Below, piece after piece: positions 44,881 to 60,863 of a stretch of 64,000 nucleotides of DNA (position 1 is its first letter; each line of letters starts with the position of its first letter). The notes beneath the pieces were generated by a model. That model was not told the origin of the DNA, did not search any database, and saw nothing but the letters and a program-made list of their open reading frames with translations. The stretch is from Chitinophagaceae bacterium (GTDB taxonomy: Bacteria > Bacteroidota > Bacteroidia > Chitinophagales > Chitinophagaceae). Location of the stretch: NCBI GenBank assembly GCA_043788995.1, contig JAYWII010000121.1, positions 15,361 to 79,360 on the forward strand, given 5' to 3'. Made by a program: the position numbers and the translations under genes.

Positions 44881-45036
44881 ACTGTAAAATCAATTGCAAA
44901 GATGACGAAAATAACCTTTGCTTTTGCTAACATGCCCGGGCGGTAAAATCAACCGGGCAATTGTTTTAAAAATTTGGTTAACAATTTAATAATATATAAG
45001 CAGGCCAAACCTGCAACTTTAATTAATATGATAGAG

Positions 45037-45059: not shown

Positions 45060-45740
45060 ATGAGTACTGTTAAAAAAGTTTTAATTGCAGATGATGAGCC
45101 AGATATCCTGGAGATAATTCAGTTTAACCTGCAGACTGAAGGCTACGAAGTGATCACTGCAAAGAATGGTGATGAAGCCCTTGAACTGGCTAAAAAACAC
45201 CAGCCCAATTTGATTATCTTAGATGTGATGATGCCTTATAAAAATGGCATCGAGGTTTGTAACATCCTTCGCTCTCAGCCGGCCTTTAAAGATACATTGA
45301 TCATTTTTCTTTCAGCATTGAGCGATGAAAGCACGGAGGTTCGTGGACTGGAAACAGGAGCAGATGATTATTTAACCAAACCCATCAGCCCGAAAATTTT
45401 AGTAAGTAAGGTGAACGCATTGTTCAGGCGGTTGAACAACAAACAGGGCGGCGATGTAATCAATATTGGCGACCTTGCCATTGACAGGGAAAAATATATT
45501 ATCCGCTACAAAGGCGGTGACATCATTCTTGCAAGAAAAGAATTTGAACTACTGGCACTGCTGGCATCCAAACCCAATAAAGTTTTTCTACGCAACGAAA
45601 TATTAAACCAGGTTTGGGGAACAGAAGTAATTGTTGGAGACCGCACCATTGATGTACATATCAGGAAAATAAGACAGAAATTAAATTTAGACTGCATTAC
45701 CACCGTAAAAGGAGTGGGCTATAAATTTGAAATGCAGTAA
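45060..45740 (+). CDS. OmpR/PhoB family response regulator (PhoB-like)
   Basis: DDEPDI, LDVMMP, GADDYLTKP, RTIDVHIRKIRQK, TVKGVGYKF. Confidence 0.92.
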   Translation: MSTVKKVLIADDEPDILEIIQFNLQTEGYEVITAKNGDEALELAKKHQPNLIILDVMMPYKNGIEVCNILRSQPAFKDTLIIFLSALSDESTEVRGLETGADDYLTKPISPKILVSKVNALFRRLNNKQGGDVINIGDLAIDREKYIIRYKGGDIILARKEFELLALLASKPNKVFLRNEILNQVWGTEVIVGDRTIDVHIRKIRQKLNLDCITTVKGVGYKFEMQ

Positions 45741-45811: not shown

Positions 45812-46861
45812 ATGTTTTCAGCAAAGAATTTATCTCCACAGCAATTATCTGCTTTTACAGCAGGCATTATTGCAGCACCAGTAAGCCTGGGTATTTATTT
45901 TTTAAAACCTGTTTGGTGGGTGGCCCTTACTGCATTTGTTATCATCTTCCTTGGTGCTTACGGCCTGGTGCTTTTTATGGTGCAGCAATTTATTTACAGG
46001 AAAATAAAATTGATCTATAAACTCATCTCTCAAACAAAAGCAAGTAAACGGGAAGAGTTCTATTATAAAAATATCCTGCCCCAAAAAAGTATGGATGAAG
46101 TAAGAGCAGATGTGGAAGACTGGGCAAGACAAAAGAAAGCTGAGATAGAAATCTTACAACAGAACGAAGCATACCGCAAAGAGTTTTTGCAAAATTTATC
46201 TCATGAATTAAAGACACCCATTTTTGCTATACAGGGTTATGTAGATACATTATTGAATGGTGCGTTGGAAAACCCGAATGTGAACCGTAAGTTTTTAAAC
46301 AGCACTTCAAGAAACATCGACAGGTTAGTAAATTTAGCCGATGACCTGGATGAGATCTCAAGACTGGAAGGCGGTGAGCAAAAGTTACTGATAGAAAACT
46401 TTGTAATACAGGAATTGATAAAAGATGTGTATGAATCACTGGCGATAAAAGCGGATGAAAAACAAATAAAGCTCACCATTAAAAAAGGCTGTGAAGTTCC
46501 ATTAACGGTAAATGCGGATAAAGAAAAAATGAGGCAGGTATTTATTAACCTGGTGGACAATGCTATTAAATATGGCAAGCAACACGGTGTAATTGAAGCC
46601 AGTATTTATAAGATAGACAGTAAAAGAATATTAGTAGAGATTACGGATGATGGGATGGGTATTGCGGAAGAACACCTGGGAAGAATTTTTGAACGTTTTT
46701 ACAGAACAGATGCTGCCCGGAGTAGAAAAATTGGAGGCAGTGGTCTGGGGCTTGCGATTTGTAAACACATTATAGAGGCACACGGACAAACGATGCATGT
46801 ACGCAGCGCCATTGACGTAGGAACCACTTTTGGTTTTACATTAGACAGCAGGAAAGAATAA
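45812..46861 (+). CDS. Sensor histidine kinase (PhoR-like)
   Basis: Two TM helices, H-box LSHELKTP, NAIKY, DDGMGI, GGSGLGL. Confidence 0.92.
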   Translation: MFSAKNLSPQQLSAFTAGIIAAPVSLGIYFLKPVWWVALTAFVIIFLGAYGLVLFMVQQFIYRKIKLIYKLISQTKASKREEFYYKNILPQKSMDEVRADVEDWARQKKAEIEILQQNEAYRKEFLQNLSHELKTPIFAIQGYVDTLLNGALENPNVNRKFLNSTSRNIDRLVNLADDLDEISRLEGGEQKLLIENFVIQELIKDVYESLAIKADEKQIKLTIKKGCEVPLTVNADKEKMRQVFINLVDNAIKYGKQHGVIEASIYKIDSKRILVEITDDGMGIAEEHLGRIFERFYRTDAARSRKIGGSGLGLAICKHIIEAHGQTMHVRSAIDVGTTFGFTLDSRKE

Positions 46862-46903: not shown

Positions 46904-47491
46904 TTATTTCAACAGGGTGTACTTTTTTTCATAAATGTGTTTCCCTAAGGGCAAACTTTTTTTTAGCTTCCAAAAATGTCTTGCTTCTGTAATTGTCTTG
47001 CCAGGATTATCTGCAAAAAAGTCACGGATATATTGATTATACTGGTTGCCACTGGGAATATCACTTTTGAAGTTTTTCTGTTTACTTAATTCATGCAATC
47101 TTTCCCATTCCTTAACAGCATCTTCTAAAGTCTTGCCGCAATTATTTTTCATAAACTTCATAAAAGGAATACTAAAATGGAATTTGTCGCCGCAATGTTC
47201 TTTAAAAAATTTTCTTGTGTTTGGTCCGTTGGTATAGGTATCGGTGACAATTGTGTTTAAAGTTAACTTAGATCTGGACCAAACAAATTTTGAGGTTGGC
47301 TTATTTATTGAAATTTTAAAATCACTCACTCCTTTGTCTATTACATTTGCAATCCTTTCCAAAATATCAAACTTTGTTCCAGCGTAACTTAATTTTTTCA
47401 TCTTACAAAAAGCGGTCAATTCTTCTTTCAGCCAATACCACCGTTTTAGTTCTTCTCCTGTTTTAATATTTTTTATACCTGGTCTTTTCAT
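46904..47491 (-). CDS. Hypothetical protein (DUF6434-like/SAP-like)
   Basis: YWLKEEL..FC, QYNQYIRDFF motifs recalled from that family. Confidence 0.65.
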   Translation of the reverse strand: MKRPGIKNIKTGEELKRWYWLKEELTAFCKMKKLSYAGTKFDILERIANVIDKGVSDFKISINKPTSKFVWSRSKLTLNTIVTDTYTNGPNTRKFFKEHCGDKFHFSIPFMKFMKNNCGKTLEDAVKEWERLHELSKQKNFKSDIPSGNQYNQYIRDFFADNPGKTITEARHFWKLKKSLPLGKHIYEKKYTLLK

Positions 47492-47520
47492 ATTGGGTTT
47501 ATTGGTAAAGTAGCACTTGC

Positions 47521-48714
47521 CTATTCAATTATCTTCTCTTCAATTTTACCTGTCTGCTTATTTTTGAGAATCACTTTTTTTGCTCCGTAATGAGTCATCT
47601 CTTCTTTGATTAAATAATGATCAGCATCATATTCTACCAGATGGCTTTCTTTACTCAACCCTGTTTTGCCACGCCAGTCTTCCAGTAATACAGGCTCCCA
47701 CAATTTTGTTTTGGCACTTTTGTAAGCTGCGTCAATTATGGCATTCACAACGTATCCATCATAAAATGTTTCCCTTGGTACTGTGCCATTCTCCATACAC
47801 CTGAACATTTCTGTGAACATGTGATTATATCCCAGTTCATTGATCTCATCTCCTACCGGGAATAACCATCCGCTGTTACTCTCTGCTTTTTCGGCAATAT
47901 AATCTCCACCCTTACCTGTAGTAAACATTTCAAAACCAGTTCTTAAAAAATTATTGATCCAGATAGTTCCTTCTGTGCCCATTACTTCATCTCTAAGATC
48001 TAAACCACCACGAAAGGTCCAGCTCACTTCAAACTGTGCAATCGCACCATTTTCATATTTGATCAAAGCTATAGCATGATCTTCTGCATCGATGGGTTTT
48101 ACCTGTGTATCTGCCCAGCACATCACTTCTATTGGCTTAATATCTTTCCCAATAAAACTCCTGGTGATCTCGATACAATGACAACCCAGATCTAAAATAC
48201 ATCCACCGCCGGCAAGTTCAATATTCCAAAACCAATCACTGTGTGGACCCGGATGTGTTTCCCTGCTCTTGGCCCACAATATTCTACCTAGAGCACCGCT
48301 CTTTACACTCTCGTATGCTTTTAAAAATTTAGGAGCATACACCAGGTCTTCCAGGTAACCATTGAAGATGCCTGCTTCCTCTACTGCCTTCAGCATACGT
48401 AACGCTTCAGCAGCATTTCTGCCAAGCGGCTTGGTGGTGATAACTGCTTTTTTATGTTTACAGCAAAGCATTACCGCTTCCTCATGCAGATGGTTAGGTA
48501 AGGCTATGCATACAACATCTGTATCAGGGTGAGCAATGGATTCTTCCATGTCAGCAGTGAAATGCTGGCAGCTATAATCTGCTGCAAATTTTTTTGCACT
48601 TTCTTCTTTACGGGAATAGACACTTGTGATGATATCCTTACTTCTTTGACCCAGTATGGAATCTGCATAAAAGCGGCCGATAAAACCAGACCCAAGCATT
48701 GCAATACGTTTCAT
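47521..48714 (-). CDS. Gfo/Idh/MocA family oxidoreductase
   Basis: GSGFIG, ALPNHLH, TKP, GGGCILDLGCH. Confidence 0.9.
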   Translation of the reverse strand: MKRIAMLGSGFIGRFYADSILGQRSKDIITSVYSRKEESAKKFAADYSCQHFTADMEESIAHPDTDVVCIALPNHLHEEAVMLCCKHKKAVITTKPLGRNAAEALRMLKAVEEAGIFNGYLEDLVYAPKFLKAYESVKSGALGRILWAKSRETHPGPHSDWFWNIELAGGGCILDLGCHCIEITRSFIGKDIKPIEVMCWADTQVKPIDAEDHAIALIKYENGAIAQFEVSWTFRGGLDLRDEVMGTEGTIWINNFLRTGFEMFTTGKGGDYIAEKAESNSGWLFPVGDEINELGYNHMFTEMFRCMENGTVPRETFYDGYVVNAIIDAAYKSAKTKLWEPVLLEDWRGKTGLSKESHLVEYDADHYLIKEEMTHYGAKKVILKNKQTGKIEEKIIE

Positions 48715-48785: not shown

Positions 48786-48853
48786 TTAATACAATTATTC
48801 ATGTTTTGTTAACAGCCAGTTCATATTAAAGAAACATAGCTATTTGAACTTTG
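48786..48853 (+). promoter_or_regulatory. Candidate Pho-box-like array plus -7 box
   Basis: TTCATG(48798), TTAACA(48809), TTCATA(48820), GAAACA(48831) at 11-bp period, 9-nt gap, GAACTTTG(48846). Confidence 0.5.
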
Positions 48854-48868
48854 ATTTAAACTCTACCA

Positions 48869-49720
48869 TTGGAAAAAAGAAAAATGGAAGTTGCAGTTAT
48901 TTCCGATGTGCATCTGGGTACTTATGGATGCCGTGCAAATGAACTGTCCCGCTACCTCTCTACAATAGATCCCACCATCCTGGTGCTGAACGGAGACATC
49001 ATCGACATCTGGCAATTCAGTAAAAAGTACTGGCCTCCGGGACACATGCAGGTGATCAAACAAATTACAAGTATGCTTAGCCGTGGGGTGAAAGTGTATT
49101 ACATCACCGGCAATCATGATGAAATGCTCCGCAGGTTTGAGAATTTTTCAGTGGGTGATTTTCATATTGTAAATAAATTAGTCATTCATCATGGCAACAA
49201 TGCCAGAAGCTGGATATTTCATGGAGATGTGTTTGATGTAACCATGCAATACAGTAAATGGTTGGCTAAGCTGGGAGCGGTGGGATACGACATGCTGATT
49301 TACATTAATGCCTTTATCAATTATATCAGTAAAAAATTAGGTAAGGGTAAAATATCTCTGTCAAAAAAAATTAAAAATTCTGTAAAGACTGCAGTTAAAT
49401 ATATTAACAGCTTTGAGCAAACTGCTGCAGAGATCGCTATTGAAAAAGGATACGATTATGTTCTATGCGGTCATATTCACCAACCGGCAGACAGGATCAT
49501 CACCACCAATAACGGAAAAGTAAATTATCTAAATTCTGGTGACTGGATTGAAAACCTGACCGCATTAGAATACAGCGACAACAAATGGACGGTGTATCAT
49601 TATCAGCAGGATGAATTAGTAAAGGAACTACACAATTCCTATTACATAGATGAAGCTGCATATTTACGTACAACAGAATTGTTCAAAATGATGATGGAAG
49701 ATTTTTCAAAAGCTTCTTAA
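48869..49720 (+). CDS. Metallophosphoesterase, LpxH/PlcP-like
   Basis: SDVHLG, GDIID, YWP..H, GNHD, HGDVFD, GHIH, NSGDWIE; TTG start. Confidence 0.85.
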   Translation: MEKRKMEVAVISDVHLGTYGCRANELSRYLSTIDPTILVLNGDIIDIWQFSKKYWPPGHMQVIKQITSMLSRGVKVYYITGNHDEMLRRFENFSVGDFHIVNKLVIHHGNNARSWIFHGDVFDVTMQYSKWLAKLGAVGYDMLIYINAFINYISKKLGKGKISLSKKIKNSVKTAVKYINSFEQTAAEIAIEKGYDYVLCGHIHQPADRIITTNNGKVNYLNSGDWIENLTALEYSDNKWTVYHYQQDELVKELHNSYYIDEAAYLRTTELFKMMMEDFSKAS

Positions 49721-49728
49721 AATTTAAA

Positions 49729-50787
49729 ATGATGAAAGTACTATACGCCATACAGGGAACAGGTAATGGACATGTGAGCAGGGCCAACGAAATTATTCCA
49801 ATGCTGCAGCAAAAGTGTGAACTGGATATTTTACTCAGCGGTACGCAGGCAGATGTAGGTGTTAATTATCCTGTTAAATACAGGCTCAAAGGGTTGAGTT
49901 TTGTTTTTGGTAAAAAAGGTGGCATCGATTTTTATAAAACATTTGAACAACTGCAATCAAAGAAATTTTTAAGTGAAATAAAAGCATTGCCAGTAGAAGA
50001 CTATGATTTAGTGATCAACGATTTTGAACCCATCAGTGCCTGGGCATGTAAAATAAAAAATGTTCCCTGTATAGCCATGAGCCACCAGTTTGCAGTATTG
50101 CATAAAAATGCACCCAGGCCGGCAAAGTTTGATCCCCTTGCACTGATGGTATTGCGTTATTATGCTCCCTGCAAAACTGGCGTAGGTTTTCATTTTAAAA
50201 AATATGGTGAAAATATTTTTACCCCGGTAATAAGAAAAGAAATCAGGAATGCAACTGTAACAAATAAGGGGCACTATACAGTTTACCTGCCTGCCTATGA
50301 CGATAAAAAAATAATTTCATTTTGTTCCAATTTTAAAAATACTGACTGGCAAATTTTTTCCAAACATACAAAAAAATCATACCGGGAAAAGAATTGCTGG
50401 ATACGCCCCGTAAGTGCAACTGATTTTACTGAAAGTTTTATTAGCTGCGAAGGTGTTCTTTGCGGTGCAGGTTTTGAAACACCGGCAGAAGCATTGTACA
50501 TGCATAAAAAAGTGCTGGTGATACCAATGAAGGCGCAATACGAACAACATTGCAATGCAGCAGGCGCTGCAGAACTGGGCGTTCCTGTAATTAAAAGTTT
50601 AAAGAAAAAACATATTCACAAAGTGGATACCTGGCTGAGCAGTGAGCAGCAAATTGAAGTGGATTTTGAAGATGACACCAACCAGATAATAGACCAGGTA
50701 TTATCTTTAGCGGCTTCAAAAAAGCTTGATGAAAAAGTGAGAAGAAAATTAATTGTACCAGAAGCGGTATCAGCGCAATGGGTTTAG
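49729..50787 (+). CDS. GT-B glycosyltransferase
   Basis: QGTGNGHVSRA, DFEP, GAGFETPAEA, QYEQHCNA. Confidence 0.85.
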   Translation: MMKVLYAIQGTGNGHVSRANEIIPMLQQKCELDILLSGTQADVGVNYPVKYRLKGLSFVFGKKGGIDFYKTFEQLQSKKFLSEIKALPVEDYDLVINDFEPISAWACKIKNVPCIAMSHQFAVLHKNAPRPAKFDPLALMVLRYYAPCKTGVGFHFKKYGENIFTPVIRKEIRNATVTNKGHYTVYLPAYDDKKIISFCSNFKNTDWQIFSKHTKKSYREKNCWIRPVSATDFTESFISCEGVLCGAGFETPAEALYMHKKVLVIPMKAQYEQHCNAAGAAELGVPVIKSLKKKHIHKVDTWLSSEQQIEVDFEDDTNQIIDQVLSLAASKKLDEKVRRKLIVPEAVSAQWV

Positions 50788-59440: not shown

Positions 59441-59507
59441 CAAAACTACCAGCGCTGTGTTAAGTAATAATTGTGGGAATATTAACTAAAAGTAAAGTAA
59501 TGGTAAA
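59441..59507 (-). promoter_or_regulatory. Candidate Pho-box-like array plus perfect -7 box for the phosphonate operon
   Basis: TTTACC, TTTACT, TTAATA, (ACAATT), TTAACA at exact 11-bp period, 9-nt gap, TAGTTTTG at 59448-59441. Confidence 0.6.
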
Positions 59508-59529
59508 CTTATTGTAGTATTGAGCCAAC

Positions 59530-60755: not shown

Positions 60756-60810
60756 CAATTTCAAATTGTTTTGTTACTGAAACATTAATTACAGATTAAG
60801 GTTATGTTAT
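60756..60810 (-). promoter_or_regulatory. Candidate Pho-box-like array plus -7-like box
   Basis: ATAACA, TTAATC, TTAATG, GTAACA at exact 11-bp period, 9-nt gap, GAAATTG. Confidence 0.55.
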
Positions 60811-60863
60811 CAAGAGCTGGTGATCACAGATAATGTTACTGAAAAAAGTATTTCGGCATCAAT

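Follow-up and report, generated by a model that had tools for sequence, protein, structure and literature searches.

A plcP-glycosyltransferase gene pair in a Chitinophagaceae genome as a probable phosphate-responsive module for membrane lipid remodeling

The gene pair and its described relatives

The gene pair considered here, a plcP-type phospholipase C gene followed by a glycosyltransferase gene, lies at positions 48869-50787 of a 64-kb window (the whole stretch of DNA that was analyzed, C121:15361-79360 of a 6.27-Mb Chitinophagaceae genome). Its closest described counterparts are the plcP-glycosyltransferase loci of other Bacteroidetes, with which it has in common the phylum, the two-gene arrangement, and a proposed role in lipid remodeling at inorganic phosphate (Pi) starvation. 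PlcP was reported in Flavobacteria by Sebastian et al. (2016, ISME J, PMC4796936); in Dokdonia MED134, the one flavobacterium studied by lipidomics, plcP expression was found to be phosphorus-regulated and phosphatidylethanolamine/phospholipid went down by about a third. Supplementary Table S2 of that paper lists ~40 Bacteroidetes with an 'Uncharacterised glycosyltransferase' beside plcP, its carriers including Polaribacter MED152, Dokdonia MED134, Pedobacter BAL39, Cytophaga hutchinsonii, Fulvivirga, Tenacibaculum, and others (PMC4796936). For Flavobacterium johnsoniae, Lidbury et al. (2020, PMC8115612) gave log2 fold changes at Pi depletion of 8.59 for PlcP (Fjoh_4577) and 5.42 for the glycosyltransferase (Fjoh_0541, Pfam label Glyco_tran_28_C), both filed under 'Lipid remodelling'; the two genes are unlinked in that organism, in contrast to the 8 bp that separate them in the window.

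Orthologues from Polaribacter, Tenacibaculum, Pedobacter, and Fulvivirga are 58-68% identical to the window PlcP and are followed by the same downstream glycosyltransferase, orthology to the genes of the exact published strains being drawn at the genus level. The arrangement is already in print for Bacteroidota, and the present pair is a Chitinophagaceae case of it. The closest matches of the window proteins are in Ferruginibacter (Chitinophagaceae, Bacteroidota). Unlike the described carriers, the host is thus Ferruginibacter-like and, judging from the names of its homologues, of a non-marine genus, from soil or fresh water.

A second described system is the PlcP-Agt pathway of lipid renovation in Proteobacteria, represented by Sinorhizobium meliloti SMc00171, Phaeobacter MED193, SAR11 HTCC7211, and Pseudomonas aeruginosa PA3219/PA3218. 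Its phospholipases fall in the same clade as the window PlcP, at 34-40% identity, and its loci have the same order, with plcP first, the glycosyltransferase second, and a Pho box upstream, for which the window locus has a candidate. The glycosyltransferases differ: Agt is a GT4 diacylglycerol glucosyl/glucuronosyl-transferase (PF13439 and PF00534), whereas the window enzyme carries PF13528, has a GT1/GT28-like fold, and had no similarity to P. aeruginosa Agt1 in BLASTP. As the two enzymes come from different glycosyltransferase families, the sugar linkage and the product may differ from those of the PlcP-Agt pathway.

Both open reading frames are present with the positions and lengths that the first-pass annotation had given them. 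plcP, predicted from its PlcP-type metallophosphoesterase sequence to have phospholipase C activity, occupies 48869..49720 (+; 283 aa), and the gene for a GT-B glycosyltransferase (PF13528, TIGR00661-like), probably acting on a lipid (diacylglycerol), occupies 49729..50787 (+; 352 aa), the gap between them being the 8 bp (49721-49728) noted before. A minus-strand gene converges on the glycosyltransferase gene and ends 42 bp past its reading frame. plcP starts with TTG, and an alternative in-frame ATG lies at 48884; the TTG start is favored because the EKRK N-terminus of the product aligns with a conserved KKRK N-terminus of orthologues and because close relatives have ATC, CTC, or CTT at the position of the ATG.

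The pairing extends across the phylum. In a search of 301 Bacteroidota genomes, with orthologues defined by E <= 1e-37 and 35-83% identity, a PlcP orthologue was found in 110, and in 75 of these the glycosyltransferase gene lies no more than 1 kb away, in 74 of them as the next gene after plcP on its strand. An alignment-based search for related loci, which returned only Bacteroidota, gave 80 named loci, and these belong to Flavobacteriales, Cytophagales, Sphingobacteriales, Chitinophagales, and Bacteroidales. The glycosyltransferase gene stands beside plcP in 75 of the 80; the exceptions are five Flagellimonas loci that lack it. A more distant version of the pair is present in Parabacteroides distasonis. 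Together with the 8-bp gap, this conserved order bears out the partner enzyme and the operon structure that had been proposed from the sequence. No neighbor other than the glycosyltransferase gene is conserved next to plcP in the related loci, and the Gfo/Idh/MocA oxidoreductase, DUF6434, and phosphonate genes of the window, considered as possible parts of the system, were rejected as not conserved beside plcP. Where the glycosyltransferase gene is unlinked to plcP in one genus (g21), its copies are not consistently beside phoBR as they are in F. johnsoniae, and an identification of g21 as Flavobacterium was given up for this reason.

From what was observed, namely the layout of the genes, the clade of the first protein, the folds, the conserved synteny, and the common cis-element, we infer that the pair is probably a PhoB-activated two-gene operon for membrane lipid remodeling at phosphate starvation. 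At low phosphate, phosphorylated PhoB would bind an upstream array and switch the operon on. PlcP, predicted to be a cytoplasmic, membrane-facing enzyme that is folded like LpxH, has a dinuclear metal site, and binds lipid through a helical cap, would cut the phospho-headgroup off phosphatidylethanolamine-type lipids, freeing phosphorus for reuse and leaving diacylglycerol. The glycosyltransferase would then use a nucleotide sugar to glycosylate this diacylglycerol, and the resulting glycolipid would be free of phosphorus. Since the modeled fold is of the inverting GT1/GT28 class, the product would probably be a beta-hexosyl lipid. Membership in a clade with proven enzymes argues for the phospholipase half of this mechanism, and conserved linkage and the modeled fold point to the glycosyltransferase half. 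The substitution of phospholipid by glycolipid suggested by the first-pass annotation thus stands as to its PlcP clade, its glycosyltransferase partner, its operon, and its Pho-type control region; its glycolipid product keeps the conditional form given here, and the idea itself had been published before.

The glycosyltransferase and its acceptor

That the second reading frame encodes a GT-B enzyme, as first read from the sequence, agrees with several lines of evidence. The 352-aa protein matches PF13528 (Glyco_trans_1_3) with 102.7 bits, above the gathering threshold of 25. Its AlphaFold2 model (pLDDT 79, pTM 0.79) consists of two Rossmann-like domains in a GT-B fold, and Foldseek places it nearest to GT1 UDP-glycosyltransferases for lipophilic acceptors (YjiC, OleD, and plant UGTs; E ~1e-11). 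The match to TIGR00661, at 148.9 bits, remains below the cut-off of 195.9, and by these profile scores the protein is a PF13528 member and a relative, rather than a member, of the TIGR00661 subfamily (the MJ1255/VC2487 family). The only further Pfam signal is a sub-threshold one to Glyco_tran_28_C, the GT28 C-terminal domain (E 0.026). The gene is present in a single copy in the genome.

MurG, plant MGD1, and Bacillus UgtP are GT28/GT1 lipid glycosyltransferases. The window enzyme resembles this group in its GT-B fold, in the G-rich loop (GTGNGH) of its N-terminal part, and in the nucleotide-sugar motif of its C-terminal part; sequence and profile searches against the PDB gave it no significant match to a solved structure, and any GT28 membership is tentative. 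A pointer to the product comes from the related loci: in 24 of the 75 plcP-glycosyltransferase loci a GH1 beta-glycosidase gene follows directly after the glycosyltransferase gene on the same strand (for example L013:7911-9248, and in L019, L021, L030, L034, and L041-L044), and because GH1 follows an enzyme with an inverting GT1/GT28-type fold, the head group may be a beta-linked hexose. The present genome has its GH1 gene elsewhere, with no array. Other genes also occur behind the glycosyltransferase gene, namely an OmpR-type response regulator in 10 other loci (Cytophagales) and a DUF6427 protein in five loci, Solitalea and Pedobacter among them.

Several observations weigh against diacylglycerol glycosylation as proposed above. 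PF13528/TIGR00661 has no substrate-assigned member in the literature (a search on TIGR00661, PF13528, or MJ1255 found no functional study), and it is the linkage to plcP that points to diacylglycerol as the acceptor. About one-fifth of the close PlcP orthologues have no match to the glycosyltransferase in the same genome. PF13528 homologues also occur where no PlcP orthologue was found, in one family (f21; ~33% identity; genera g57, g60, and g66) and in the genomes G063 and G227 (51-53%), all of which hold only the LpxH-like paralogue, so that the glycosyltransferase family is not strictly tied to PlcP. Finally, Dokdonia MED134 has plcP and the glycosyltransferase gene, yet the phosphorus-free lipids described for it are aminolipids and no glycolipid, hence no glycosyl-diacylglycerol, is named (PMC4796936).

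The last two observations are what would be expected if PlcP recovered phosphorus as proposed while the glycosyltransferase acted on another acceptor: ceramide released from sphingophospholipids, yielding a glycosphingolipid, or else an aminolipid or a pigment of the carotenoid or flexirubin type. The closest structures, being GT1 enzymes for small lipophilic aglycones, are in keeping with this alternative, as is a serine palmitoyltransferase gene elsewhere in the genome (NF047600, 672.8 bits) that lies behind a Pho-box-like array with a score of 16.7. A tight plcP-glycosyltransferase operon throughout the phylum, on the other hand, parallels the proven logic of the PlcP-Agt pathway, in which the phospholipase product is the glycosyltransferase acceptor, and we consider a different acceptor unlikely, although it is the strongest of the competing explanations. 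Phosphate-starved Caulobacter forms a glycosphingolipid. The serine palmitoyltransferase gene is at C15:13303-14514 (-), with a profile score above the family cut-off, and its array is at C15:14544-14576, 29 bp upstream; given an array in that position, sphingolipid synthesis may also be phosphate-responsive in this organism.

A more far-reaching proposal joins these elements. The PF13528 enzyme would be the first member of its large family with an assigned function, an inverting glycosyltransferase making beta-hexosyl diacylglycerol (or ceramide) as the phosphorus-free surrogate lipid of Bacteroidota and a non-orthologous replacement of the GT4 Agt; GH1 would reverse the swap in a third of the lineages; and a GTAACA array with an 11-bp period would be the Bacteroidota Pho box. 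Taken as a whole, we hold this to be possible but somewhat short of probable.

The upstream array as a candidate Pho box

The Pho-like array seen before plcP on first reading is a real feature. It spans 48786..48840 (+), with five 7-bp units at an 11-bp period and a position weight matrix score of 13.8. By chance, a 150-nt upstream region should contain ~0.004 such arrays (by arithmetic on the intergenic DNA of the genome). The units TTAATAC, ATTCATG, GTTAACA, GTTCATA, and AGAAACA start at 48786, 48797, 48808, 48819, and 48830 (span 48786-48836), and the best three lie at 48808-48840, GTTAACAgccaGTTCATAttaaAGAAACA. The weight matrix was built from the plcP upstream arrays of other Bacteroidota and was used to scan both window and genome. 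Bacteroidota promoters have a -7 element of consensus TAnnTTTG; a candidate for it, GAACTTTG, with one mismatch, is found at 48846..48853 (+), and relatives have a TTTG-containing element at the same relative position. The array occupies the place of the expected -33 element.

Across 90 Bacteroidota plcP upstream regions, three-unit GTAACA arrays are enriched at a period of 11 and at no other: the mean best score is 11.8 at this period, whereas each of the other periods gives ~10.2 and shuffled sequences give 10.06 +/- 0.97. Scores of at least 13 are reached in 31 of the 90 loci against 1.1 expected, and the forward strand outscores the reverse.

Within the window the scan returned four sites, before phoB (+ 44966-44998), plcP (+ 48808-48840), a small RNA (- 60779-60811), and a SusC/phosphonate operon (- 59476-59508). 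The phoB site, with a score of 14.2, is the highest on the plus strand and the plcP site the second. The best array of the genome, GTTAACAttgtGGTAACAttgtCTTAACA, scores 29.3 and is located at C121:80597-80629 (-), ~1.2 kb past the end of the window, in front of a TonB-dependent receptor gene. Genome-wide, the best arrays precede genes for two TonB-dependent receptors, PhoH, the alkaline phosphatase PafA (755 bits, behind a top array), a secreted nuclease, a giant 5'-nucleotidase, a GT4 glycosyltransferase, and serine palmitoyltransferase, and 22 of 33 arrays are intergenic, compared with a background of 10%.

Because the array recurs before plcP across the phylum and before phoB and phosphorus genes in this genome, the GTAACA-type 11-bp array is very likely the Bacteroidota Pho box, to which, judging from sequence, PhoB would bind. 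The E. coli Pho box has the same geometry of 7 + 4 bp; its units are of the CTGTCAT type in contrast to the GTAACA type here. A literature search found no published Bacteroidota Pho-box consensus. The array before plcP scores just 13.8, well under the best arrays of the genome, which holds 68 distinct arrays of at least 13.5, and the sole PstS-like (PBP_like_2) gene (C91:98681-99529, +) has no array within 400 bp. These facts would suit a lipid-remodeling module outside PhoB control, the repeats before it being either AT-rich sequence that arose by chance or a site at which some other regulator acts. We regard that as very unlikely, since the enrichment in 90 independent loci shows specificity both for the 11-bp period and for orientation, the four best arrays of the window are all in promoters of phosphorus-related genes or phoB, those of the genome precede PafA, PhoH, nucleases, and TonB-dependent receptors, and Pi depletion induces the orthologues of two flavobacteria (PMC4796936, PMC8115612). 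The PstS-like gene is apparently preceded by another gene of the same operon.

The presumed regulators are encoded close by. phoB (45060-45740, +) matches the NCBIfam PhoB model TIGR02154 with 229 bits, and a phoR-like kinase gene (45812-46861, +) matches PnpS with 247, WalK with 224, and proteobacterial PhoR with 223 bits, all of these scores lying under the equivalog cut-offs. The plcP-glycosyltransferase pair forms part of a phosphorus island, with phoBR and a phosphonate-utilization locus nearby. In Ferruginibacter relatives phoBR stands immediately upstream of plcP, and in L008 and G195 (= L098), both close relatives, plcP is the next gene after phoR. In the window a DUF6434/SAP-domain gene and the Gfo/Idh/MocA oxidoreductase gene lie between phoR and plcP (46904-48714, -); these two minus-strand genes look like an insertion into an ancestral phoBR-plcP-glycosyltransferase row.

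Contig C18 resembles a second phosphorus island, with arrays at ~1.9, 6.1, 12.7, 16.9, 28.5, 45.2, 54.6, 56.7, and 62.3 kb. Among the genes behind arrays are those for a 2093-aa choice-of-anchor-I/5'-nucleotidase protein, a TonB-dependent receptor, and a 1242-aa LTD and Exo_endo_phos nuclease with a type IX secretion system (T9SS) tail. Another encodes a GT4 glycosyltransferase (C18:56973-58112) that has only the C-terminal motif in common with Agt1.

Placement of the first protein among PlcP and LpxH

The 283-aa protein is of the kind that is automatically annotated as LpxH, as had been anticipated: databases name its close homologues 'UDP-2,3-diacylglucosamine diphosphatase / LpxH'. The motifs that had suggested PlcP instead, SDVHLG..GC, GNHD, HGDVFD, and NSGDWIE, are all present; the W....YWP motif had been given a spacing of four residues, and the actual spacing is five (WQFSKKYWPPGH). 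Its Pfam matches are to the general metallophosphoesterase domains PF00149 and PF12850 only, and it does not reach the cut-off of either LpxH model, scoring 49.1 bits against 134 for NF003743 and 31.6 bits against 190.35 for TIGR01854. A second paralogue in the same genome (252 aa, contig C43) scores 109.9 bits to the LpxH model.

A maximum-likelihood tree of 38 sequences (LG+C20), the phylogeny with PlcP and LpxH references that had been put forward as a check, splits with support of 100/100 into proteobacterial LpxH and Bacteroidota LpxH-like proteins, the paralogue of this genome included, and a clade in which the window protein stands with its Bacteroidota orthologues and with the PlcPs of Proteobacteria. 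The window protein groups with the characterized PlcPs of S. meliloti and P. aeruginosa (PA3219) and does not cluster with true LpxH. This placement, the scores below the LpxH cut-offs, and the separate LpxH-type gene in the genome support its identity as PlcP.

The LpxH references were those of E. coli, Aeromonas, Neisseria, Acinetobacter, and Legionella; Ralstonia has both a PlcP-like gene and LpxH. The named reference sequences were taken from chromosomes that are listed as plasmids in PLSDB. Several 'plasmid' records of that database are chromosomes or pieces of them (CP090106.1, NZ_CP115947.1, NZ_CP137508.1, and others), and a 3.72-Mb S. meliloti record titled pSymB bears the chromosomal sinR/sinI-plcP region. 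The S. meliloti reference gene, the sole homologue in that 3.7-Mb record, adjoins genes for a LuxR-family regulator and an acyl-homoserine-lactone synthase, which we take to be sinR and sinI; by its locus numbering the reference is presumably SMc00171. P. aeruginosa PA3219 has a GT4 partner downstream. The two reference PlcPs are 47% identical to each other, against a reported 46% (PMC8528852).

With S. meliloti PlcP the 283-aa protein shares 34% identity (E 2e-46), with its own LpxH-like paralogue only 24%. The catalytic residues D8, H10, D38, N77, H113, H197, and H199 are present, the metal ligands being common to all groups, PlcP and LpxH alike. The residues that are invariant on the PlcP side, H78, D118, W126, Y135, C195, and the NSGDWxExxTALE block, are likewise all found in the protein, and the first two of these distinguish it from proteobacterial LpxH, which has GNRD in place of GNHD (Arg in place of H78) and Cys in place of D118. 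The two families have in common the fold, the dinuclear metal ligands, and an inserted helical cap. Thus, the AlphaFold model of the 283-aa protein (pLDDT 75) is built like LpxH, its helical insertion lying at ~127-187, and the top 24 PDB matches in Foldseek are LpxH structures (E ~1e-11), some with lipid X bound, the next enzyme class following at E ~1e-6. It is this LpxH-like fold that accounts for the automatic label.

Matches in the 301 Bacteroidota genomes are sharply bimodal: 110 contain an orthologue, and almost all contain a more remote match that is LpxH-like (E 1e-8 to 1e-19); from this distribution the clade of the window protein looks accessory and the LpxH-like one housekeeping. 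That the 283-aa protein could instead be the lipid A enzyme LpxH of the cell (UDP-2,3-diacylglucosamine diphosphatase) beside an unrelated glycosyltransferase is suggested by the database names of its homologues, its weak matches to the LpxH models, and its nearest solved fold, but is scarcely credible against scores so far under the cut-offs, a better LpxH-type paralogue, the patchy occurrence of its clade compared with the near-universal LpxH-like match, the PlcP-specific residues, Pho-type control with a conserved glycosyltransferase partner, and a phylogeny that already contradicts it.

On the PlcP identity supported here, thousands of Bacteroidota genes labeled 'LpxH / UDP-2,3-diacylglucosamine diphosphatase' are PlcP-type phospholipases, and the lipid A enzyme is the other paralogue. 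Interest centers on the partner glycosyltransferase family and its lipid product in Bacteroidota, together with the Pho-box consensus. The phased GTAACA array offers a practical way to map the phosphate regulon in Bacteroidota, bacteria with a major part in the recycling of organic phosphorus in soil, in lakes, and in the sea.

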